Shown piece after piece: positions 1 through 35,230 of a DNA stretch of 35,230 nt; position 1 is the first letter of the stretch, and the number at the start of each line of letters is the position of its first letter. The notes beneath the pieces are model-generated. The model did not search any database, was not told the DNA's origin, and saw nothing but the letters and a program-made list of their open reading frames with translations. The stretch comes from a virus (taxonomy: Duplodnaviria; Heunggongvirae; Uroviricota; Caudoviricetes). Position numbers and translations under genes: made by a program. Location: IMG/VR virus record IMGVR_UViG_2872698443_000002. The stretch is one strand, 5' to 3'.

Positions 1-1032
1 TCAATCGCGTCTCAGCTGGGGTAAGCGAGACATCTTGGCGGGTTGATAAGCTATAGTGATCAAGAACTGAGAATACTTGAACCAATTCTCTAGAATCCCT
101 TCACCATATATCAAAATTTTATCTTCTATAGGGAAGTACAAGTTTACCACTTCATTTCTGCAAGTATCCAAGAAGGCGTAGGTTATCTCTTCTAAGGATT
201 GCAGTGATTCGTACAGAGTGCCAAAATCATAAAATGGTGAATAAACTTGGTATTTATTATAACTATCATTTATTACAAATGACTTTTTATAATGAAATCC
301 ACCTAAACACAACAGTTTACAAGTTTTTTCATAAATAATCATAACTCCTACAAATATTCTCATCTTTGTTGTGCAAAGTTCCTCTGTAGGATGTATTTGA
401 TTTTCACTCTCGGATAATTGCTTGAGTCTTGCGTTGATTTCTACCCAACATTTGTGTAAATCAATAACAAATTGCTCATTAATATCTAATTGTTGAGAAT
501 CATCAGGCGTAGATTGTGGGTATGCTTTTCTATATAATTCTTGTGGATGTTTTATAAAATGTTGGTAGATTGCTTCAGCTTGAGCTTCCTGAACCGGGTA
601 GTAGCTGCCTATTCTTTTTCCTTCGATTTTTTTATATAAATCAAGATGAAATTTCATGTGGTTGTAATATAAATCTACCCTGTTTTTCCTTTCTGCCTCT
701 GAGATCTGTTTTTCTGTTTGTTTGGTTCTGTGTAGGTTGTTTACTATTGAAACTAAAGGTACTGCAGATGCAAGGATGAGTAATGGTAATTTCGAGATAT
801 CTAAAAATCTCTCATAACCGTGACTTGTAAGACTAAAAGAGTGTATTTTATCTATCCAGACAAAAGAACCAAAGTAAAGGCTGGTGAATAAAGGTAGGCC
901 TATTGCAGCCCAGAACAAGGGTTGTTGGAACAAGCTTCTATGATCGAGAACATAAAGTCGATATTTTATAAATAAGAATATACAACCTAATAAAACGGAT
1001 AGGTACATAAATGTGCTAATGCTTTTTTCCAT
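1..1032 (-). CDS. hypothetical membrane protein; AT-rich cargo gene immediately downstream of int
   Basis: 343-aa ORF. The first ~100 aa carry three hydrophobic helix-like stretches, followed by a ~240-aa soluble region with no motif I recognise. Its ATG starts 2 nt after the int stop (tgaTAATGg). Visibly more AT-rich than the phage backbone. Confidence 0.6.
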   Translation of the reverse strand: MEKSISTFMYLSVLLGCIFLFIKYRLYVLDHRSLFQQPLFWAAIGLPLFTSLYFGSFVWIDKIHSFSLTSHGYERFLDISKLPLLILASAVPLVSIVNNLHRTKQTEKQISEAERKNRVDLYYNHMKFHLDLYKKIEGKRIGSYYPVQEAQAEAIYQHFIKHPQELYRKAYPQSTPDDSQQLDINEQFVIDLHKCWVEINARLKQLSESENQIHPTEELCTTKMRIFVGVMIIYEKTCKLLCLGGFHYKKSFVINDSYNKYQVYSPFYDFGTLYESLQSLEEITYAFLDTCRNEVVNLYFPIEDKILIYGEGILENWFKYSQFLITIAYQPAKMSRLPQLRRD

Positions 1033-1034
1033 TA

Positions 1035-2054
1035 TCAGTATCCCAACATAGCCAGTGGATTTTTTGTTACAGCATCTTCTAAATGATCTGGCGAAAAATG
1101 AGCATAAACCATCGTCATTTTTATATCAGAGTGACCAAGAATATCGCGTAGTACCAATATGTTTCCGCCATTCATCATGAAGTGACTGGCGAATGTATGG
1201 CGCAACACGTGTGTGCACTGGCCTTCAGGCAGGTCTATACCGGCTCGTTTTACTGCGCGCTCAAAAGCTTTTCTGCAGGGCGTGAATAGTTTCCCTCTGT
1301 TTTTGGGGAGTTCTTCATATAGCTCCTGAGATATCGGTACGGTTCGGTTTTTCTTGCCTTTAGTTTTGGTGTAGGTGATCCGGTATTTTGATAATTGATG
1401 GCCCTGCAGGTTTTCGGCTTCACTCCATCTCGCGCCGGTGGCCAGACATATTTTTGCAACCGTCAGCAGACTAGAGCTTTGAGAATCGGCGCAGGCATCC
1501 AGCAGACGTTTAATTTCTTCCGGGGTCAGGAACGCCAATTCACTCTCAGCAATTTTAAACGTTGGCAGCCCAGCAAGCGGGTTGGGGGCTGACCAGTGGC
1601 CCAGCTTTTTCAGTGTACCAAAAACAGATGATAGATTGCGCTGTTCAAGGTTTACCGTGCGGGGCTTAACGGGCGACATAAACGTGCCATCTTCATTTCG
1701 TACTTCACCTTTTAACCGTGCTTCGCGGTATTTCGTAAAGTCACCGGCTGTCAGTTCTGAAGCGATGGGATCGCCTAGACCATTACAGATAATACTAAGT
1801 TTCGCCATGAGGCGCTTGGGGTCTGTGAGTGTTTGACCATACAGGGAATACCACAGCTCAATTAATTCTGATAGATGTCGCCGATCTTCCTTTTCCCCCA
1901 GCCATGGTTTTTTGTTCACTTCTTCCATTGTGAAGCTTTCAAATGCAATAGCTTCGCCTTTGGTAGCAAATTGCTTACGCACGCGCTTACCATTGCGTCC
2001 ATTGGGATAGCACTCACACAACCATTTTCCGTTCGGCTGTTTTCTGATGGTCAT
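1035..2054 (-). CDS. int: phage integrase, tyrosine recombinase (P2/186 family)
   Basis: 339 aa. C-terminal catalytic region (...HVLRHTFASHFMMNGGNILVLRDILGHSDIKMTMVYAHF...) has the R..H-x-x-R...Y pattern of tyrosine recombinases. Sits directly downstream of cI on the same strand, as in 186. Confidence 0.9.
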   Translation of the reverse strand: MTIRKQPNGKWLCECYPNGRNGKRVRKQFATKGEAIAFESFTMEEVNKKPWLGEKEDRRHLSELIELWYSLYGQTLTDPKRLMAKLSIICNGLGDPIASELTAGDFTKYREARLKGEVRNEDGTFMSPVKPRTVNLEQRNLSSVFGTLKKLGHWSAPNPLAGLPTFKIAESELAFLTPEEIKRLLDACADSQSSSLLTVAKICLATGARWSEAENLQGHQLSKYRITYTKTKGKKNRTVPISQELYEELPKNRGKLFTPCRKAFERAVKRAGIDLPEGQCTHVLRHTFASHFMMNGGNILVLRDILGHSDIKMTMVYAHFSPDHLEDAVTKNPLAMLGY

Positions 2055-2057
2055 AAG

Positions 2058-2708
2058 TTAGAGGTTCTTGATTACTTTGACTGCACGTCCTACGACTTCC
2101 ACATCATCTACAGAACATTCAAATGAAGTGTCATCTTGGTTAACTACTATTTTGTTTCCGGGTATGCGCGCAATTTTGACGATGTTTTTCATACCGTCGA
2201 TGTCTATGAGCCAAATTCCGTTACTAAGCTGTTTTGCTGATGTATCAACAATGTAATTGCCGTCGTTAGCTTTGACGTACAAACAATATTCGGCTTTTCC
2301 GGGTATCAAAGTCTGATCAAGGAAAACATCCCCCATCTCTTCGAGCGTTCCGTTCTCAATGGTTGCCTGCCTTACTGATGGGATAACTATCTTTGAAAGG
2401 GGGCGAACTGTAGGTGAACTCTCGTTTTTGAACTTATTTTTTTCTTCTGTTTGAGGATACATTTCCCCTTGGCCCGTTGTCAGCCAAAGAAGAGAAATAC
2501 CTGTTTCAAGGGCACATTGAATAACCCAGTCAGCAGGGAAGCTATCACGTAACATCCTGTTTGCCATGGTGCTTTTTGATGCTTCGAGGTGTTCAACCAA
2601 CGCAATCTGAGTGTTGAAACCATAGGCAGTCATCAGCCTTTTGATGGTCTCTCTTCCTCCCGTATTTGCACCTGTATTAATCTTCAAGATGAACTCTCCA
2701 TTTGACAA
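2058..2708 (-). CDS. cI: CI-type immunity repressor (186 CI-like)
   Basis: 216-aa ORF from a TTG; N-terminal HTH-like segment (AYGFNTQIALVEHLEASKSTMANRM) and a C-terminal domain ending ...FECSVDDVEVVGRAVKVIKNL. Its stop is 4 nt from the int start (cI-int operon). The start codon is uncertain: TTG at 2708 or ATG at 2633. Confidence 0.7.
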   Translation of the reverse strand: MSNGEFILKINTGANTGGRETIKRLMTAYGFNTQIALVEHLEASKSTMANRMLRDSFPADWVIQCALETGISLLWLTTGQGEMYPQTEEKNKFKNESSPTVRPLSKIVIPSVRQATIENGTLEEMGDVFLDQTLIPGKAEYCLYVKANDGNYIVDTSAKQLSNGIWLIDIDGMKNIVKIARIPGNKIVVNQDDTSFECSVDDVEVVGRAVKVIKNL

Positions 2709-4409: not shown

Positions 4410-4636
4410 TGGCTGATGCAATGGATCTCGTACAGCAGCGAGTTGAAGAAGAACGCCAACGTCATATCCGTGCTGCCCGTGCCAAAACGCCGGGCGTGTC
4501 CCGCGTGCTTTGCGTTGAGTGTGAAGCGCCAATTCTGCCAGCACGCCGTCGTGCCATTCCGGGTGTGCAGCTTTGCATTACCTGTCAGGAAATCGCAGAG
4601 CTGAAAGGCAAACATTACAACGGAGGTGCTGTATGA
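4409..4636 (+). CDS. TraR/DksA-family C4 zinc-finger protein
   Basis: 75 aa with C-x2-C-x17-C-x2-C (CVECEAPILPARRRAIPGVQLCITCQ). Small phage proteins of this family are common in P2-like early operons. Confidence 0.8.
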   Translation: MADAMDLVQQRVEEERQRHIRAARAKTPGVSRVLCVECEAPILPARRRAIPGVQLCITCQEIAELKGKHYNGGAV

Positions 4637-5257
4637 GCACCATCCTGAAATGGGCGGGAAATAAAACCGCCATAATGTCCGAACTGAAAAAGCATCTTCC
4701 TGCTGGCCCGCGACTGGTTGAACCTTTCGCGGGATCCTGTGCAGTGATGATGGAGACGGATTACCCCAGCTATCTTGTTGCGGATATTAATCCTGATTTA
4801 ATCAACCTCTATAAAAAGGTTGCTGCTGATTGTGAGGCGTTTATATCTCGTGCCAGAGCTTTATTTGAGGAAGCAAACAGGGAGGTGGCTTATTACAACA
4901 TAAGGCAGGAGTTTAATTACTCCACTGAAATTACTGATTTCATGAAAGCGGTATATTTTCTGTATCTCAATCGTCATGGTTATCGTGGGTTATGTCGCTA
5001 TAACAAGAGCGGGTATTTCAACATTCCCTACGGTAATTATAAAAATCCGTATTTCCCTGAAAAAGAAATTCGCGCATTTGCAGAGAAAGCCCAGCGGGCA
5101 ACGTTTATCTGCGCCAGCTTTGATGAAACGCTGGCGATGTTGAAGGCGGGGGATGTGGTGTATTGCGATCCGCCTTATGACGGTACGTTTTCCGGCTATC
5201 ACACTGATGGCTTCACTGAAGATGACCAGTATCACCTGGCATCCGTTCTTGAACATC

Positions 5258-5262
5258 GATCA
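5258..5262. repeat. IS2 target-site duplication, left copy (GATCA)
   Basis: The 5-bp GATCA immediately left of the IS2 end is repeated at 6594..6598. Confidence 0.8.
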
Positions 5263-5353
5263 TAGACTGGCCCCCTGAATCTCCAGACAACCAATATCAC
5301 TTAAATAAGTGATAGTCTTAATACTAGTTTTTAGACTAGTCATTGGAGAGCAG

Positions 5354-5719
5354 ATGATTGATGTCTTAGGACCGGAGAAACGCAGACGGCGTACTACACA
5401 GGAAAAGATCGCTATTGTTCAGCAGAGTTTTGAACCGGGAATGACGGTCTCCCTTGTTGCCCGGCAACACGGTGTGGCAGCCAGCCAGTTATTTCTCTGG
5501 CGCAAGCAATACCAGGAGGGAAGTCTTACTGCTGTGGCCGCAGGAGAGCAGGTCGTTCCTGCCTCTGAACTTGCTGCTGCCATGAAGCAGATTAAAGAAC
5601 TCCAGCGCCTGCTCGGCAAAAAAACGATGGAAAATGAACTCCTTAAAGAAGCCGTTGAATACGGGCGTGCAAAAAAGTGGATAGCGCACGCGCCCTTATT
5701 GCCCGGGGATGGGGAGTAA
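5354..5719 (+). CDS. insC: IS2 transposase OrfA (InsC)
   Basis: 121 aa, [41 protein letters not shown]..., HTH-type OrfA of IS2. Confidence 0.9.
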
Positions 5720-6582
5720 GCTTAGTCAGCCGTTGTCTCCGGGTGTCGCGTGCGCAGTTGCACGTAATTCTCAGACGAACCGATGACTGGAAAGATGGTC
5801 GCCGCAGCCGTCACTCAGATGATACGGATGTGCTTCTCCGTATACACCATGTTATCGGAGAGCTGCCCACGTATGGTTATCGTCGGGTATGGGCGCTGCT
5901 TCGCAGACAGGCCGAACTTGATGGTATGCCTGCGATCAATGCCAAACGTGTTTACCGGATCATGCGCCAGAATGCGCTGTTGCTTGAGCGAAAAACCGCT
6001 GTACCGCCATCGAAACGGGCACATACTGGCAAAGTGGCCGTGAAAGAAAGCAATCAACGATGGTGCTCTGACGGGTTCGAGTTCCGCTGTGATAACGGAG
6101 AAAAACTGCGAGTCACGTTCGCGCTGGACTGCTGTGACCGTGAGGCACTGCACTGGGCAGTCACTACGGGCGGCTTCGACAGTGAAACAGTACAGGACGT
6201 AATGCTGGGAGCGGTGGAACGCCGCTTCGGCAACGAGCTTCCGGCGTCTCCAGTAGAGTGGCTGACGGATAATGGTTCATGCTACCGGGCTAATGAAACA
6301 CGGCAGTTTGCCCGGATATTGGGGCTTGAACCGAAGAACACGGCGGTGCGGAGTCCGGAGAGTAACGGCATAGCAGAGAGCTTCGTGAAAACGATAAAGC
6401 GTGACTACATCAGTATCATGCCTAAACCAGACGGGTTAACGGCAGCAAAGAACCTTGCAGAGGCGTTCGAGCATTATAACGAATGGCATCCGCATAGTGC
6501 ACTGGGTTATCGCTCGCCACGGGAATATCTGCGGCAGCAGGCCAGTAATGGGTTAAGTGATAACAGGTGTCTGGAAATATAG
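5677..6582 (+). CDS. insD: IS2 transposase OrfB (InsD), DDE catalytic domain
   Basis: 301 aa from GTG 5677, overlapping orfA in the -1 frame; an A-AAA-AAG frameshift motif lies just upstream of the orfA stop. Confidence 0.9.
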
Positions 6583-9389: not shown

Positions 9390-9578
9390 ATGCAGGACTA
9401 TTTTTTGGAGTCTTTGAAGCTCCAGCGCATTGATTTTTTTCTTAAGCTTGTAGCGGCTAGTGAGTGTAGTGATGAAGAGAAGGGGCTGGCTCTGCAGTGG
9501 GTTTCTGAACTGACAGATGAACTCATGGCAAAAATCAGAACCCACGAATACAACCGCTCAATGGATGTCATCAGCTGA
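9390..9578 (+). CDS. tum-like SOS antirepressor, N-terminal portion (possibly one half of a split tum)
   Basis: 62-aa ORF directly downstream of the LexA box. Size and position fit the N-terminal half of a 186 Tum-like protein. Confidence 0.45.
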   Translation: MQDYFLESLKLQRIDFFLKLVAASECSDEEKGLALQWVSELTDELMAKIRTHEYNRSMDVIS

Positions 9579-9588
9579 GGTGACTTTT

Positions 9589-9822
9589 ATGCGCATTGAA
9601 ATAATGATCGATAAAGAGCAGAAGATTAGCCAGTCTACACTGGACGCCCTTGAATCCGAGCTTTACCGCAATCTGCGCCCCCTGTATCCCAAAACGGTAA
9701 TTCGTATCCGCAAAGGTAGCTCTAACGGTGTGGAACTTACCGGATTGCAACTGGACGAAGAAAGAAAACAAGTGATGAAAATTATGCAGAAGGTGTGGGA
9801 AGACGACAGCTGGCTGCATTAA
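9589..9822 (+). CDS. DinI-like protein
   Basis: 77 aa, MRIEIMIDKEQKISQSTLDALESELYRNLRPLYP...VMKIMQKVWEDDSWLH, resembling E. coli DinI (MRIEVTIAK...ETWESADDWF). RBS GAGG at 9576..9579. Its frame stays open upstream to 9517, overlapping the previous ORF. Confidence 0.8.
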   Translation: MRIEIMIDKEQKISQSTLDALESELYRNLRPLYPKTVIRIRKGSSNGVELTGLQLDEERKQVMKIMQKVWEDDSWLH

Positions 9823-10033
9823 GAAACGTTGCTGGCGTCTGAACCTGCTTCTGGCGTCAGCAAGGTTGAACCGCGAGCCTTGAGAGGCGTTAACCATAAG
9901 TAAAAAGACAGTAATCACTTGATTATCTATCAGGGCGAGACCTATGCTGCACTTTTAGTTATAACTCATAATGTATTGAAATTATTAGAATATATGTCAT
10001 TCTTAAAATGTGTATGCTTATCAAGGAGCAAGA

Positions 10034-10906
10034 ATGAAACGTGGCATTGTAGCTAATCCTAATGAAATGAGTTTTCATAGAAATAATAGTACGGTCTATC
10101 TTGGGGCAGGTTTAACTGAGCAGGATATTAATTATTTCTGCTTTTACTGGGATGATGTGGTTATTCTAGATAGTGAAAATATTCACTCGATTGTGCCTAA
10201 AGAAAAAGAATTATTAGATAATGGGGTATTACGTAGACCTATTATGAAACATGATGGTATGCTGAATATCCAAGACTTTCCATTTTTATATACGGAATTT
10301 CAGTTGCAGACATTGGATGAATTCAGGAAGAACGAGCCTGCTACTTATTGGCACTTTCATCAAACAGGGGAAAATTTAATATATGATAAAGAACAGAAAA
10401 CGGCCCTTCAGTTGAGATTGGAGTTGTTTAATGTTCTGAGAATTCCTGATAAAGATGCTCATATAGAAGATATATTACGTTTTAAAGATGATTGTCAGGA
10501 TGATCTTAATGCGTTACATGAGTACTTAGAAAAACTGTATACTGAAGTCCTTTATTCTAGAGACCCTAATCTAACGAGGGCTAAAAATTTTTCTTTATTA
10601 CAAGAGGCTGTAGTTAATCTTGATAAAGCTATCGAAGGGAAATGGAGAAATCCTATCAGAATGGGAGTCAAAGCCAATCCAGAAGTAGATGGTGGGCAGG
10701 TTATGGAATTTTTAAAACCGTTGTACCATGCTGCTATTGCTGGTTATTCAGGCGGTATTATTCCCGGTATGGTTACAGCCTTGGCAACCGCAATTCCAAG
10801 TTTTATAAAAATCCAACCAGAATGGGTGGGCTTTAGAGATAAGGGGCCTAAAGAATTAGCTTATCTTACCAAAGCAACGCATAAGGGGTTGATTAAGAGA
10901 GCTTAA
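10034..10906 (+). CDS. hypothetical protein; AT-rich cargo ORF in the A-to-cos variable region
   Basis: 290 aa from ATG 10034 (RBS AAGGAG 6 nt upstream; an upstream GTG at 10010 is also possible). Visibly AT-rich. C-terminal glycine-rich hydrophobic segment AAIAGYSGGIIPGMVTALATAIPSF. No catalytic motif recognised. Confidence 0.6.
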   Translation: MKRGIVANPNEMSFHRNNSTVYLGAGLTEQDINYFCFYWDDVVILDSENIHSIVPKEKELLDNGVLRRPIMKHDGMLNIQDFPFLYTEFQLQTLDEFRKNEPATYWHFHQTGENLIYDKEQKTALQLRLELFNVLRIPDKDAHIEDILRFKDDCQDDLNALHEYLEKLYTEVLYSRDPNLTRAKNFSLLQEAVVNLDKAIEGKWRNPIRMGVKANPEVDGGQVMEFLKPLYHAAIAGYSGGIIPGMVTALATAIPSFIKIQPEWVGFRDKGPKELAYLTKATHKGLIKRA

Positions 10907-22511: not shown

Positions 22512-24031
22512 GCACAAAATTTTATACCCTGCTGACGGATATTGGCGCGGCGAAACTTGCCAGCGCCGCCGCGCTCGGTGTGCCGCTAAAAATTACCCAT
22601 ATGGCGGTCGGCGATGGCGGTGGAGTATTGCCAACGCCGGACGCAAAGCAGACGGCACTGGTAAATGAGAAACGCCGGGCTGCGCTGAATATGCTTTATA
22701 TCGACCCGCAGAACAGCAGCCAGATTATTGCCGAACAGGTGATCCCTGAAAACGAGGGCGGTTGGTGGATACGTGAAGTGGGCTTGTTTGATGAGTCCGG
22801 GGCATTGATTGCCGTGGGCAACTGCCCGGAAAGCTATAAGCCGCAACTGGCTGAAGGTAGCGGGCGCACTCAGACCGTGCGCATGGTGCTGATTACCAGC
22901 AGCACGGACAATATCACCCTGAAAATCGACCCTGCTGTAGTGCTGGCAACCCGCAAGTATGTGGATGACAAGGCACTGGAGCTGAAGGTGTACGCGGATG
23001 ATCAGATGGCAAAACATCTTGCCGCACCGGACCCGCATTCACAGTACGCGCCAAAAGCCAGCCCGACATTTACCGGAACCCCCAAAGCGCCAACGCCAGC
23101 GGCGGGGAATAATACCACGCAGGTTGCGACCACTGCGTTTGTACAGGCGGCACTGACGGCCCTTATTAATGGTGCGCCAGCCACGCTGGACACGCTGAAA
23201 GAAATAGCCGCAGCCATTAACAATGATCCGAATTTCAGTACCACCATTAACAATGCGCTGGCACTAAAAGCACCGTTGTCGAGTCCGGCACTCACCGGAA
23301 CGCCAACAGCCCCCACGGCGGCGCAGTCGGTCAACAATACACAGATTGCCACTACGGCTTTTGTGAAATCGGCGATTGCAGGAATGGTGGGTTCTGCACC
23401 TGCTGCACTGGATACACTGAACGAACTGGCGGCGGCACTGGGGAATGATCCGAACTTTGCCACGACAATGCTTAATGCGCTGGCAGGTAAACAACCGCTG
23501 GACAATACGCTTACCAATTTGAGTGGAAAGGATGTGGCTGGTCTTCTCGCATACCTTGGTTTGGGAGAAGGTGCTCCAGCTATTGGCGTTCCGTTCTTCT
23601 GGCCGTCCGCCGCAATGCCAGATACCGTAATCGAAAGCTGGTCCGGCATGGTGTTTTTGAAGTTCAACGGCGCGAAATTCTCTGCCACTGATTACCCTGT
23701 GCTGGCGAAAGTGTTTCCTTCGCTGGTATTACCTGAAGCCCGCGGTGATTTCATTCGTATCTGGGATGATGGTCGTGGTGTAGATAGTGGACGTGGATTA
23801 CTTAGTACGCAGTCTGACCTGATGAAACAATTTACTTTGCAATACTACGGTCCTTCTGCTGGTACTGGAACAAGAATGGTTTTCGCCCTCCAGAGTAATG
23901 CGAACGGCATATATACGAGTGGTATTAGTCAGAATGATGGTAGTGGCACCGCTGCGGCTTTTAATGTACCAGGCGGCACCGAAACACGCCCACGTAACAT
24001 TGCATTCAACTTTTTAGTAAGGGCTAAATAA
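22508..24031 (+). CDS. H: tail fibre protein gpH (constant N-terminal part plus currently expressed variable C-terminal cassette)
   Basis: 507 aa. Contains two tandem ~57-aa repeats (...SPTFTGTPKAPT...NDPNF / ...SPALTGTPTAPT...NDPNF). A gix-like crossover site lies inside the gene at 23544..23569. Confidence 0.85.
   Translation: MSTKFYTLLTDIGAAKLASAAALGVPLKITHMAVGDGGGVLPTPDAKQTALVNEKRRAALNMLYIDPQNSSQIIAEQVIPENEGGWWIREVGLFDESGALIAVGNCPESYKPQLAEGSGRTQTVRMVLITSSTDNITLKIDPAVVLATRKYVDDKALELKVYADDQMAKHLAAPDPHSQYAPKASPTFTGTPKAPTPAAGNNTTQVATTAFVQAALTALINGAPATLDTLKEIAAAINNDPNFSTTINNALALKAPLSSPALTGTPTAPTAAQSVNNTQIATTAFVKSAIAGMVGSAPAALDTLNELAAALGNDPNFATTMLNALAGKQPLDNTLTNLSGKDVAGLLAYLGLGEGAPAIGVPFFWPSAAMPDTVIESWSGMVFLKFNGAKFSATDYPVLAKVFPSLVLPEARGDFIRIWDDGRGVDSGRGLLSTQSDLMKQFTLQYYGPSAGTGTRMVFALQSNANGIYTSGISQNDGSGTAAAFNVPGGTETRPRNIAFNFLVRAK
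23544..23569. repeat. invertase crossover site, left (TTCTCGCATACCTTGGTTTGGGAGAA), inside H
   Basis: 26-bp imperfect dyad. It matches the reverse complement of the 25624..25649 site at 18 of 26 positions, including the central ACnTTGGTTT, and the codon phase is identical in both. Confidence 0.6.
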
Positions 24032-24624
24032 TGAAACCTGTTTTTGATAAAAATGGGCTGGCTACAGTGCCGGGTGATATGCGTTGTTTTTATTATGATG
24101 CAGTAACGTCTGAATATACTGGCTGGTCTGATGAATATATTAATACTGGTGTAAGTATGCCCGCCTGTTCCACTGGTATTGACCCGGGCGAATACATTCC
24201 GGGGAAAGTGGCAGTATTTACGGGTAAGGGATGGAGCCATGAAGAAGACCACCGCAATGAGACTGCTTACTCAATCGAAAATGGCGCAGCTGTTACAGTG
24301 GATTATATCGGTGCCATCAAAGACGCTTATGTCACGCTTTCACCGTTAACGCCATACGATAAATGGGATGGTGAGAAATGGGTGACAGATACTGAGGCAC
24401 AGCATAGTGCCTCAGTAGACGCGGCAGAAGCACAGCGCCAGTCGCTGATTGATGCTGCAATGGCTTCCATCAGTCTGATTCAACTGAAATTGCAGGCCGG
24501 GCGGAAGCTGACGCAGGCAGAAACAACCCGACTTAACGCCGTGCTGGATTACATTGACGCGGTGACGGCAACAGATACCAGCACCGCGCCGGATATCATC
24601 TGGCCTGAACAGCCGGAGGCGTAG
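24031..24624 (+). CDS. G: tail fibre assembly chaperone gpG (Tfa), expressed orientation
   Basis: 197 aa directly after H. Its C-terminus (...DYIDAVTATDTSTAPDIIWPEQPEA) resembles that of the convergent tfa copy. Confidence 0.8.
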   Translation: MKPVFDKNGLATVPGDMRCFYYDAVTSEYTGWSDEYINTGVSMPACSTGIDPGEYIPGKVAVFTGKGWSHEEDHRNETAYSIENGAAVTVDYIGAIKDAYVTLSPLTPYDKWDGEKWVTDTEAQHSASVDAAEAQRQSLIDAAMASISLIQLKLQAGRKLTQAETTRLNAVLDYIDAVTATDTSTAPDIIWPEQPEA

Positions 24625-25030
24625 GCCATTCAATATCTGGAGCACTGGAAATATCAACCATTTCCAGTGCGTCCAGATAATCAAACCAGGCGTTCAAAAG
24701 TGCTTCTTCATCTGGCTTGATGCGTTTGAGCGCCAGTCTTGTCCGTAGCATCTCTGTTTCCGATTTCACTTCTGATATCAGAAATACTTTTTTGACTTCC
24801 GCCTGATGCACCAATTCCTCATGGGTAGGCAGAGTGACATTCACCCAGGCAGGTCGACCTTTGACACTACCGAGTTCTTTTCCTTCCGGAGCCGGTTTCA
24901 TCCAGTATTTATCACGCTCTGAATCCGTCAGTTTAACGATATCGTCCGGCCATGTTCCGGCGGCGATATAGCCGTCTTTCATATCCAGAGGATAAAACGC
25001 CAACGTTGTGGCTGAGAAGCACATATCCAT
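24596..25030 (-). CDS. alternative tail fibre assembly chaperone (tfa'), silent orientation
   Basis: 144 aa, convergent with G with 3' ends overlapping; C-terminus (...DYLDALEMVDISSAPDIEWPTPP) is related to G. Confidence 0.7.
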   Translation of the reverse strand: MDMCFSATTLAFYPLDMKDGYIAAGTWPDDIVKLTDSERDKYWMKPAPEGKELGSVKGRPAWVNVTLPTHEELVHQAEVKKVFLISEVKSETEMLRTRLALKRIKPDEEALLNAWFDYLDALEMVDISSAPDIEWPTPPAVQAR

Positions 25031-25032
25031 AA

Positions 25033-25677
25033 TTAAAATCCTATCGCTAGCCAGGTGGTGGCGTTATTATCGGGAAGGAGCACTCTGTCTGATGTGTTGC
25101 TTAACACGCAAATCTGTGTGGCATTAAATCCGACATTCGTTATAGCATTAGCTGTCCACACTGATGTCGTTTGTCCGCCGCCCGGCGAAGACTCGCCGAC
25201 AAACAGTGGTGGTCTTGTGAAAGCCACCGGGAATTTTACGTAGACATCTGTTGGTGTAATCTCTGATAGCCCCCACTGTATAATCATGCCGGACGGTAAC
25301 TTCTGATATCCATTAGTTGACGGTGAACTACCAAAATCAGCAGGTAGCCCGCGCACCAAATCGGCATCAAGCCCTGACCCGGAACCATCAACCTGAAGCA
25401 GTTTTGTCAGTATTGCCTGCGCCGTTACCTGTTCTTCAAGAGCAAGACTTCCTCCTTTGTTTTGCAGATATACGTATTTTGCGGCACCGTCGACTTTAAA
25501 AGCGATAGCAAATTGTTTCTTCTGTTCATCATATGCCAGCCAAAGACTATCCTCTGGCCTGCCAGACTCAAACACGAAAGTCGAGAATCTGTTATCTGTC
25601 TTATCTCTCTTCAGGTTCAGTAATTCCGGTAAACCAACGTTTATGAAAATGCAGAGATAACGGCTAACTGGCATCAT
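25033..25677 (-). CDS. alternative tail-fibre variable C-terminal cassette (promoterless, silent orientation)
   Basis: Reading frame open through the crossover site. Sequence after the site (...IFINVGLPELLNLKRDK...) parallels H at its crossover (...LLAYLGLGEGAP...). The functional part is about 25033..25636; residues upstream of the site are read-through only. Confidence 0.65.
   Translation of the reverse strand: MMPVSRYLCIFINVGLPELLNLKRDKTDNRFSTFVFESGRPEDSLWLAYDEQKKQFAIAFKVDGAAKYVYLQNKGGSLALEEQVTAQAILTKLLQVDGSGSGLDADLVRGLPADFGSSPSTNGYQKLPSGMIIQWGLSEITPTDVYVKFPVAFTRPPLFVGESSPGGGQTTSVWTANAITNVGFNATQICVLSNTSDRVLLPDNNATTWLAIGF
25624..25649. repeat. invertase crossover site, right (TTCCGGTAAACCAACGTTTATGAAAA), gix/hix-like
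   Basis: Closely resembles Gin/Hin-family recombination sites (compare gix TTCCTGTAAACCGAGGTTTTGGATAA); inverted relative to the site in H; about 55 bp upstream of the invertase gene. Confidence 0.65.
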
Positions 25678-25704
25678 CCCCGGTTTTTATTCAGGGGATT
25701 GATC

Positions 25705-26271
25705 ATGCTTATTGGCTATGTACGCGTGTCAACAAATGACCAGAACACCGATTTGCAACGTAATGCACTGAACTGAGCGGGATGTGAGCGGATTTTTGAG
25801 GACAAAATCAGTGGCACTAAGTCCGACAGACCGGGACTGAAAAAACTGCTCAGGACATTATCGGCAGGTGACACTCTGGTTGTCTGGAAGCTGGACAGGT
25901 TGGGGCGCAGTATGCGGCATCTCGTTACGCTGATAGAAGAGCTGCGCCAGCGTGGCGTGAATTTCCGAAGCCTGACTGACAGTATTGATACCAGTACCCC
26001 AATGGGCCGTTTCTTTTTTCATGTCATGGGGGCCCTGGCTGAAATGGAGCGCGAACTGATAGTTGAACGTACCAGGGCGGGGCTGGCTGCAGCTCGCGCC
26101 AAAGGCAGAGTAGGTGGACGCCGTCCTAAGTTGATCACCGAACAGTGGGCACAGATTGGACGTTTACTCGAGGCCGGAGAATCAAGACAGCGTATTGCAC
26201 TGATTTTTGATGTAGGTGTTTCCACAATTTATAGAAAATTTCCGGCAAATAAGAGCAATGAATCCCCCTGA
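25705..26271 (+). pseudogene. Gin/Pin/Hin-family serine DNA invertase with in-frame TGA at codon 24
   Basis: MLIGYVRVSTNDQNTDLQRNALN-stop (TGA 25774..25776), then the same frame continues AGCERIFEDKISG...LVVWKLDRLGRS...FRSLTDSIDT...GRFFFHVMGALAEMERELIVERT... to 26271. This is a full-length invertase apart from the single stop, which falls where Gin/Hin have a Cys/Ser codon. Confidence 0.8.
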
Positions 26272-33545: not shown

Positions 33546-33569
33546 AACCTGCTACGGCAGGTTTTTATT
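33546..33569 (+). terminator. rho-independent terminator after ogr
   Basis: AACCTGC-TACG-GCAGGTT hairpin followed by TTTTATT. Confidence 0.6.
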
Positions 33570-34047
33570 CATCTGGGATCTCACCCGTTTCAAGAAAATG
33601 TATAAAGCCAGGCTCATCTATGATGATTGTGCCTTTCATCCTGGCTGCCGATACTTTTGATGGGCCTGCATTGTAACCGCAACAGAGCATCTGAAGGCTT
33701 TGGGTTACAGAGGTTCTTACCGTTAATCCTTGTTCATTCGCCTTATCAACCAATCTTTCTTTATCTGCTTTCTTAAATCCGGTGAAACACACATCGAATG
33801 TATTTTTTTTCGGACCAGACTGCTTAGTGAGATGTGAGTAGTTTTCGGGGAGGAATGACGCGCATTCCTGAATGGCTTGTTCTGGTGAATCGTACTGTTT
33901 AAGAATGCGGTCTTTTCGGAAGGTTTTTATTCGATCGGTGTTCTTACAAATGCCCTGTATATGATTTTCGCTATAACTGATGCTCTGTATTGAGTGAACT
34001 CCGATACGACCATTTGCATTGATGTAAACAAAGTGAAGTTCTTCCAT
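33565..34047 (-). CDS. hypothetical two-domain protein: N-terminal WYL-like segment plus C-terminal BRCT-like domain; AT-rich cargo gene next to the attachment site
   Basis: 160 aa with RBS AGAGG 6 nt upstream. The C-terminal ~75 aa align position-by-position with the BRCT domain of NAD-dependent DNA ligase. The N-terminus (...NGRIG...GICKNTDRIKTFRKDRI) resembles the GyC...R.FR.DRI signature of WYL beta-barrels. Confidence 0.65.
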   Translation of the reverse strand: MEELHFVYINANGRIGVHSIQSISYSENHIQGICKNTDRIKTFRKDRILKQYDSPEQAIQECASFLPENYSHLTKQSGPKKNTFDVCFTGFKKADKERLVDKANEQGLTVRTSVTQSLQMLCCGYNAGPSKVSAARMKGTIIIDEPGFIHFLETGEIPDE

Positions 34048-34127
34048 GTGAAACCTCTTTGCATGATTTCAAGAGGGCGACAGGCAAGATAGACGCAAAA
34101 GTCTGTCGCCATTTTGCCGCCACTACC

Positions 34128-34170: not shown

Positions 34171-34533
34171 TGGTGGAGCTGGCGGGAGTTGAACCCGCGT
34201 CCGAAATTCCTACATCCTCGGTACTACATGCTTAGTCAGTCTTTACATTCGCTTGCCAGCTGCGGACGGACACGCCACTAACAAACTAGCCTGATTAAGT
34301 TTTAACGCTTCAACCCCAGGCAGGGCTTCCACGCGATCTCTTTTGGGTTTGACCTCTCTTGATCCCCGTCCTAAGAGCGGAGGCTAGGGAGAGAGGGCTC
34401 TAAGCAGGTTATTAAGCTGCTAAAGCGTAGTTTTCGTCGTTTGCGACTATTTTTTGCGGCTTTTTACGAGGCCAACCGCCCCTCGGCATGCACCTTGGGT
34501 TTCGCAAATCCCGTCGAATCCAGAATCAGCCCC
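34171..34533 (-). ncRNA. ssrA: tmRNA (SsrA)
   Basis: The reverse complement begins GGGGCTGATTCTGGATTCGACGGGATTTGCGAAACCC and ends ...GGTTCAACTCCCGCCAGCTCCACCA. It contains the ANDENYALAA tag-coding region (...GCAAACGACGAAAACTACGCTTTAGCAGCTTAA) and the tRNA-like 3' end. Length is 363 nt. Confidence 0.95.
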
Positions 34534-34747: not shown

Positions 34748-35230
34748 TTAACGGTGGGCGTTTTTCATGATACGCGCTTTATCCACCTGCCATTCGCGCT
34801 CTTTGATATCTGAACGTTTATCGTGCTGTTTCTTACCTTTGGCGACGCCGATTTTCACTTTGCACCAGGCATTTTTCCAGTACAGGGAGAGCGCCACTAC
34901 GGTATAGCCTTCTCGATTGACGCGACCGTACAATGAGTCCAGTTCGCGCTGGTTGAGAAGTAACTTGCGGGTACGGGTAGGATCGCACACCACATGCGTG
35001 GAGGCCACTGCCATTGGCGTGATGTTTGCGCCAAACAGGAACGCTTCTCCGTCACGCAGAAGGACATAGCTGTCGCTGATATTGGCTTTTCCTGCGCGCA
35101 GGGATTTAACTTCCCAGCCTTGCAGGGCAAGTCCCGCTTCGAACTCTTCTTCGATAAAGTATTCGTGACGGGCGCGCTTGTTAAGCGCGATGGTCGCTGA
35201 ACCAGGTTTATGTGCTTTTTTCTTCGTCAT
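34748..35230 (-). CDS. smpB: SsrA-binding protein SmpB
   Basis: 160 aa, [56 protein letters not shown]..., immediately upstream of ssrA in the same orientation. Start codon is at the window edge. Confidence 0.95.

Follow-up and report, generated by a model that had tools for sequence, protein, structure and literature searches.

A membrane-protein gene inserted between int and the attachment site of a 186/Fels-2-like prophage, a candidate anti-phage factor of lysogens

Several described systems resemble, in one respect or another, the locus reported here. The RexA and RexB proteins of phage lambda are products of exclusion genes co-transcribed with cI, and RexB is a membrane channel. P22 SieA, T4 Imm and HK97 gp15 are small phage-encoded inner-membrane proteins of superinfection exclusion; SieA and gp15 are encoded by prophages and made in lysogens. 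Csx28 combines transmembrane (TM) segments with a divergent HEPN domain in a pore. Membrane-associated HEPN proteins at large have been divided into three groups (Anantharaman et al. 2013, PMC3710099). As for location, P2 hotspots were described between the gpA and portal genes (old/tin) and at Z/fun (Rousset 2022, PMC9122126; Vassallo 2022, PMC9519451), and the int-att interval of P2-like prophages was reported to be a minor defence hotspot, to which about 3% of P2-borne systems map (NAR 2026, PMC13586616). One defence system, PD-T7-4, "often overlaps an integrase gene" (Vassallo 2022, PMC9519451). The kind of element we describe, a moron in a prophage hotspot, is already known; the family to which it belongs is itself uncharacterised and stands outside the annotation and defence-finder libraries searched.

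The gene in question, here called ORF343, shares with lambda Rex its place in a lysogenic (repressor) operon, a polytopic inner-membrane protein as product and, in our proposal, the logic of a sensor joined to a membrane effector. It differs in being a single polypeptide where Rex consists of two proteins, and no sequence or structural similarity to Rex was detected. With SieA, Imm and gp15 it has in common that a phage encodes an inner-membrane protein (predicted in the case of ORF343), but no homology to them was found and ORF343 has a large predicted cytoplasmic domain. Like Csx28 and the membrane-associated HEPN proteins, it places an N-terminal TM part before a helical domain (cytoplasmic by prediction in ORF343); HEPN-like signals are weak in ORF343, and some of its relatives have an RNxxxH motif. 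It falls into the same location class as the cargo of the P2-like int-att hotspot, and the content of the slot varies among similar phages in both cases. Unlike that cargo, ORF343 has no match in PADLOC 2.0, and its slot holds allelic versions of one family placed head-to-tail with int, whereas hotspots hold unrelated cassettes with their own signals. Identity with PD-T7-4 was rejected, since the PADLOC library, which is expected to include that system, gave no match to ORF343.

The window, by which we mean the whole analysed stretch of 35,230 nucleotides, is a prophage of the P2 family, of 186/Fels-2 type, with ssrA as its integration site. Its early region codes for cI, int, an Apl/Rha-like protein, CII, Fil, a Dam methylase and a gpA-type replication protein. 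At one end lie an intact tmRNA gene (ssrA, 34171-34533, minus strand) and smpB (34748-35230); here a 45-nt att core (34171-34215, minus strand), identical with the 3´ end of intact ssrA, marks the prophage junction; in the P´ arm, the motif ATGGCGACA (34104-34112, minus strand) is a candidate Int arm-type site. At the other end the window begins with ORF343 (1-1032, minus strand), whose stop codon occupies window bases 1-3, just as the initial annotation had read it. That annotation had left the prophage end to be found by extension to the left. The sequence of E. coli EcPNK004 is 99.9% identical across window positions 1-2100 and runs on past the left edge; there the motif ATGGCGACA begins 2 nt past the ORF343 stop, and the 45-nt core, ATGTAGGAATTTCGGACGCGGGTTCAACTCCCGCCAGCTCCACCA, recurs about 115 nt downstream of the stop. 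The prophage boundary therefore lies beyond ORF343 and not between int and ORF343, the arrangement that would have refuted the initial annotation. RefSeq annotates a 177-nt partial "ssrA tmRNA" in EcPNK004 (5840-6016 of locus L001), which shares 16 nt with the 3´ end of ORF343. Because only the 45-nt core is common with ssrA and the remainder is the phage P arm, this annotation over-extends.

The same comparison points to the way in which the gene sits in the phage genome. The sequence from the ORF343 stop (TGATGGCGACATTTTGGCGGCAG...AAAAATGGT-core) can be aligned base for base with that of Fels-2 from the int stop (TAATTTATGGCGGCATTTTGGCGGCAG...AAAAATGGT-core). Since homology to the Fels-2 interval between int stop and attP begins at the ORF343 stop, ORF343 represents, relative to Fels-2, a 1034-nt insertion placed precisely where the int stop meets the attP P arm, and the position of the att core beyond it together with the Fels-2 arm homology makes it phage cargo. 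As judged from this alignment, ORF343 is an accessory gene (moron) within a Fels-2/186-like prophage, and it came with neither non-coding DNA nor intergenic space.

ORF343 is a real, selected gene of 343 codons. It starts with ATG and is preceded by a 2-nt spacer (1033-1034) behind the stop of the tyrosine integrase gene on the same minus strand (1035-2054; Int_N 3.8e-29, Phage_integrase 4.3e-25), the junction reading ...GGA TAC TGA TA ATG, so that this part of the initial annotation holds to the letter. The integrase gene is 85-91% identical in DNA to Fels-2-type int genes. Directly upstream of it, the gene of the 186-type CI repressor (2058-2708, minus strand) opens the leftward lysogenic operon cI-int-ORF343. 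The AT-richness noted initially against a GC-richer backbone is pronounced: GC content is 0.34 in ORF343 (0.31 at third codon positions), 0.47 in int, 0.42 in cI and 0.52-0.57 in late and structural genes, and about 45-58% in the window outside ORF343. Such composition, combined with the lack of any functional annotation, would fit a decaying or non-functional insertion that stays open by chance. The probability of 343 codons without a stop at the base composition of ORF343 is 4.5e-12, however, and the longest stop-free run in 2000 shuffles reached 167 codons. Close alleles give a dN/dS (omega) of 0.05-0.15 in both halves of the gene; read from these ratios, purifying selection acts on ORF343, and positive selection was not found in the C-terminal domain among close alleles (omega 0.05-0.09). 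With 951 homologous clusters and a high-confidence structure model in addition, we reject a chance or decaying reading frame as having a very small probability.

The slot between int and att is variable in content. In 5426 complete E. coli genomes, window positions 1-2100 were found at 99% identity or more in 20 genomes and the int part only (from about position 1049) in 194, that is, ORF343 is present in 20 of the 214 genomes that carry the window int. Fels-2 has the slot empty, and E. coli CFSAN051542 fills it with a different gene of 309 codons that shows weak PADLOC likeness to 2TM effectors (8e-5). In Kosakonia, an ORF343 homologue is followed by PifA (PADLOC E-value 1e-261). Some prophages of Enterobacter and Citrobacter (7191-8381 in L002 and L003, 4593-5786 in L018) have a gene of 396-397 codons after the ORF343 homologue and before the host flank; it has no Pfam or PADLOC match and could be a partner or further cargo. 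The PifA neighbour, the 309-codon 2TM-like gene and the genes of 396-397 codons fit the published report of an int-att hotspot.

The protein itself can be divided into two parts. Kyte-Doolittle hydropathy and AlphaFold2 agree on the three N-terminal hydrophobic helices that were noticed initially. TM helix 1 spans residues 2-23 (964-1029), TM helix 2 residues 38-61 (850-921; family-conserved Q37, F40, P47, G55 and W59 by alignment) and TM helix 3 residues 81-99 (736-792; conserved P83, L87, A88, P92, N98 and N99), all on the minus strand. In the full-length AlphaFold2 model (pLDDT 89.6) the third helix runs on as a long helix to residue 135. It thereby includes the juxtamembrane motif NNLHRTxQTEKQIxExxxKNxxDxYYxHxK (residues 98-127; 652-741, minus strand), predicted to lie at the cytoplasmic face, which is the most conserved part of the family. 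The soluble domain, estimated at first at about 240 residues, comprises about 245 and was modelled alone with confidence as an alpha/beta structure (pLDDT 91.3, pTM 0.85); its hypervariable portion covers residues 136-343 (4-627, minus strand). Applied alone, the positive-inside rule predicts a periplasmic N-terminus and a cytoplasmic location for both loop 24-37 and the C-terminal domain.

Relatives of ORF343 are numerous and nameless. A word-indexed search returned 48 of them in Enterobacteriaceae, and a profile search of 1.84 billion representatives yielded 951 clusters (formed at 50% identity) at E-values up to 1e-3, 487 at up to 1e-10 and 195 at up to 1e-30. The sole family-library match, over the full length, is PHROG 17460 (phrog_17460, function unknown). 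Searches of Pfam, NCBIfam and PADLOC-DB 2.0 with ORF343 gave nothing at an E-value of 1 or less, in agreement with the initial impression of a protein with no recognisable motif, and the family as a whole has no model in any of the three. PDB sequence searches with profiles of the family and of its RNxxxH subclade brought no meaningful match, NCBIfam gave none with the subclade, and the best Foldseek hit in BFVD was not significant (E-value 0.42). Literature searches brought up no account of the protein accession or of a membrane gene downstream of int in 186-like phages. Across 166 members, the conserved part spans residues of about 29-127 and consists of TM2, TM3 and a juxtamembrane helix, in which N98 N99 x H101 R102 T x Q105 T E K Q I110 ... 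K116 N117 xx D120 form an invariant signature. Mean pairwise identity is 48% in this membrane module versus 16% in the C-terminal domain, and in 82% of the members the latter shares less than 20% identity with its ORF343 counterpart. A profile of the module alone, searched for other domain partners, met 11 mostly short proteins with sub-threshold DUF2207_C likeness.

Weak signals in the C-terminal domain raise the question of a membrane-anchored HEPN ribonuclease, a toxin or abortive effector whose C-terminal domain would cleave RNA once triggered. Three relatives have sub-threshold matches to HEPN_RiboL-PSP, the best of them (P0016) reaching 25.1 bits (E-value 2e-5) where the cut-off is 28.4. 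In eight relatives a canonical RNxxxH closes the helix that corresponds to ORF343 residues 186-208, and the catalytic Rx4-6H motif of HEPN domains sits at the end of helix 3 (PMC3710099). Furthermore, E112-A-E-R-K116 of ORF343 agrees with HEPN Ex3[KR], E112 being conserved in at least 90% of members and K116 invariant, although so short a motif is weak evidence. On the other hand, ORF343 has SENQIH (residues 208-213) in the equivalent loop, with no Rx4-6H and no catalytic arginine; the motif position is not conserved among its close relatives, RNxxxH is not invariant even inside the subclade of the eight, and ORF343 does not match PF18735 (RiboL-PSP-HEPN) at an E-value of 1 or less. Because the motif is missing from ORF343 and is not conserved, we hold the ribonuclease reading to be very improbable and reject HEPN RNase as a label for this protein. 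Part of the family may have a C-terminal domain that derives from HEPN.

The placement of the gene within lysogeny operons is conserved to a high degree. In all inspected contigs with homologues from the word-indexed search (26-41% identical) the gene directly follows a 186-type int in the order cI-int-X, where X stands for the ORF343 homologue. A pattern scan of the genome collection gave four loci: both Citrobacter loci have the order cI-int-X, in Kosakonia X follows a truncated int, and in Pseudomonas chlororaphis (L015) a 37%-identical homologue adjoins an umuC-like gene with no adjacent int. Among 77 IMG/VR viral contigs, a same-strand int lies upstream of the relative in 72, and in 69 the first ATG falls -38 to +5 nt from the int stop, the commonest values being -4 (an ATGA overlap), +2 and +1. 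In most of these contigs int is 91-94% identical to the window int, whereas the identity of X is as low as 30-46%. The examined contexts are prophages or other mobile elements, P. chlororaphis L015 apart. A host housekeeping membrane protein, homology to which would have spoken against the initial annotation, was tried as a candidate and dropped, as no such homology and no NCBIfam match were found and the contexts are mobile with the same exception.

The module is also found outside the P2 family. Hypervariable regions encoded by Vibrio inoviruses and double-jelly-roll prophages were described recently (Commun Biol 2025, PMC12715192), and in these phages module homologues are present as the last gene beside a repressor gene. 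Temperate, non-tailed double-jelly-roll elements of Vibrio cyclitrophicus (Vinavirales; PE001 and PE002) encode a protein of 355-371 residues with a TM2-TM3-HRSEQTKKQI...YYKH module, which hhalign relates to the ORF343 family with a probability of 97% and an E-value of 9e-11. Its gene starts 1 nt past that of a LexA-like repressor and is the last one of the element. The inovirus VALG_phi6 encodes a protein of 279 residues with the TM2-TM3 module. These Vibrio phages belong to other virus realms than the phage of ORF343, and the common part is limited to TM2, TM3 and the juxtamembrane stretch. The presence of the module in such elements indicates that it was recruited repeatedly to genes co-expressed with a repressor.

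How might ORF343 be expressed? No sigma-70-like site and no terminator-like hairpin were found in the interval between int and ORF343; the ATG is preceded, 8 nt upstream, by no more than a weak GGGA. In phage 186, pL is the lysogenic promoter and faces pR (PMC7498355), and an int::lacZ translational fusion reports leftward (pL/pE) transcription (PMC7708051). The tight junction, the missing promoter and terminator and the leftward transcription of 186 int imply that ORF343 would be made whenever cI-int is transcribed, the leftward cI-int transcript probably yielding little of it in lysogens. Co-transcription with cI and int, as assumed in the initial annotation, gains further support from the 69 tight junctions among 77 contigs. 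Translation would probably proceed by termination-reinitiation at the int stop.

Alleles of the gene travel between phages. When the window is compared with the homologous locus L030, dS amounts to 0.48 in int and to 0.06-0.12 in X, a discordance indicating that an allele moved between int backgrounds. Among the alleles P0010-P0030, some C-termini end in GDTLAAEH and that of P0023 runs on as ...LEDVVTKNPLFNL, and L018 has DAVTKNPLYSLNY just past X (4537-4575). All these tails are relics of an Int C-terminus (..HLEDAVTKNPL..). Relics at or just after the 3´ ends of many alleles would make the int 3´ end a recombination anchor, which suggests that the gene is inserted or exchanged through recombination within this end of int. 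ORF343 itself has no such relic after its 3´ end.

We suggest that ORF343 is likely to act against phages, by exclusion or by abortive infection. The linkage to lysogeny genes, the conserved module joined to a hypervariable domain and the exchange of alleles together fit best a lysogen-expressed protein of this type. As to the way it works, an abortive mechanism based on a membrane effector, or some variant of it, has in our estimate a little less than an even chance. [quoted passage not shown] The latter might consist in a block of genome entry or, which we slightly favour, in permeabilisation or depolarisation of the membrane, abortive in the manner of lambda Rex.

Strict superinfection exclusion, in which DNA translocation across the inner membrane is blocked without death of the cell, would make use of the same features: ORF343 is predicted to be an inner-membrane protein, it is presumably expressed in lysogens, and its variable domain could touch ejected phage proteins at the cytoplasmic face. 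We regard it as rather unlikely, as ORF343 is without similarity to known Sie proteins (Pfam, PHROGs, BFVD) and its big domain, cytoplasmic and not periplasmic, is atypical for blockers that work from the periplasmic side; sequence alone does not separate strict exclusion from an abortive mechanism.

Against any anti-phage role counts the fact that single membrane-protein morons can also serve in host conversion or prophage maintenance. ORF343 might accordingly alter the host's envelope physiology or its tolerance of stress, be an addiction toxin, or modulate Int or excision at the membrane. It is after all a lysogeny-operon moron with no assigned function, and its strict linkage to int or a repressor across phage groups could reflect a role in lysogeny. 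The absence of the gene from Fels-2 and from 194 of the 214 E. coli prophages with the same int means, however, that integration and excision can do without it. Antagonistic co-evolution or allele shuffling would account for a hypervariable domain next to a conserved int better than a housekeeping task in lysogeny, and no transferase or transporter similarity was found in Pfam or NCBIfam. We thus see in a non-defence role a minor possibility. Conversion of O-antigen or LPS in particular is unlikely in view of a soluble domain that probably faces the cytoplasm and shows no transferase similarity: ORF343 has no Pfam match to GtrA/B/C, Acyl_transf_3 or Wzy-type modules, and two family members gave sub-threshold, TM-driven matches to Acyl_transf_3 (best 0.0012) and Wzy_C (best 0.14).

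Extending the anti-phage reading to the whole family, we propose, and this only tentatively, that its members are single-protein anti-phage systems in which a conserved 3-TM/juxtamembrane effector (NNxHRTxQTEKQI..KN..D) is combined with an exchangeable, hypervariable sensor domain in the cytoplasm. Having no signals of its own, such a gene would ride the lysogeny operons of at least three unrelated temperate lineages (P2/186-like phages, Vibrio double-jelly-roll elements and inoviruses) by stop-start coupling to int or repressor, and its alleles would be shuffled with int and attP as homology anchors. If the family is indeed anti-phage, two things follow. Firstly, a widespread defence or exclusion gene has been missed by current finders (951 clusters, no Pfam, NCBIfam or PADLOC model). 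Secondly, the int-att junction and int- or repressor-coupled genes are a hiding place for lysogen-expressed functions without their own regulatory DNA. The conserved membrane module, set against nearly unrelated C-terminal domains, offers a natural domain-swap system for the study of trigger specificity. Should ORF343 not be anti-phage, it would still rank among the most consistently placed unknown genes in 186-type prophages of Enterobacteriaceae.

The prophage has several other features. At its opposite end, some 120 nt downstream of the att core in ssrA, an ORF of 160 codons (33565-34047, minus strand; GC 0.41) has a weak BRCT match (Pfam, 1.1e-3) and matches the C-terminus of the PADLOC candidate PDC-S48 (1.8e-7); possibly this ORF is another piece of cargo beside att. 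Between the gpA replication and portal genes, in the classical old/tin defence hotspot of P2, lie a DinI-like gene (9517-9822, plus strand) and an AT-rich gene (10010-10906, plus strand; GC 0.36) for a DUF6236 protein of 298 residues; neither has a PADLOC match. In the early operon, the gene of a Dam-type DNA adenine methylase and, after it, that of a protein of the PAPS-reductase family (4573-6582, plus strand; 10633-12488 in L001) could form a DNA-modification or anti-restriction pair. The tail-fibre region (23815-26271) contains genes for a tail-fibre C-terminus and for assembly that point the opposite way (24596-25677, minus strand), an imperfect inverted repeat of 22 nt (23815-23836 and 25507-25528) and a truncated Hin/Gin-type serine invertase of which the C-terminal 123 residues are left (25900-26271). 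From this layout, the region looks like a remnant of an invertible host-range switch.
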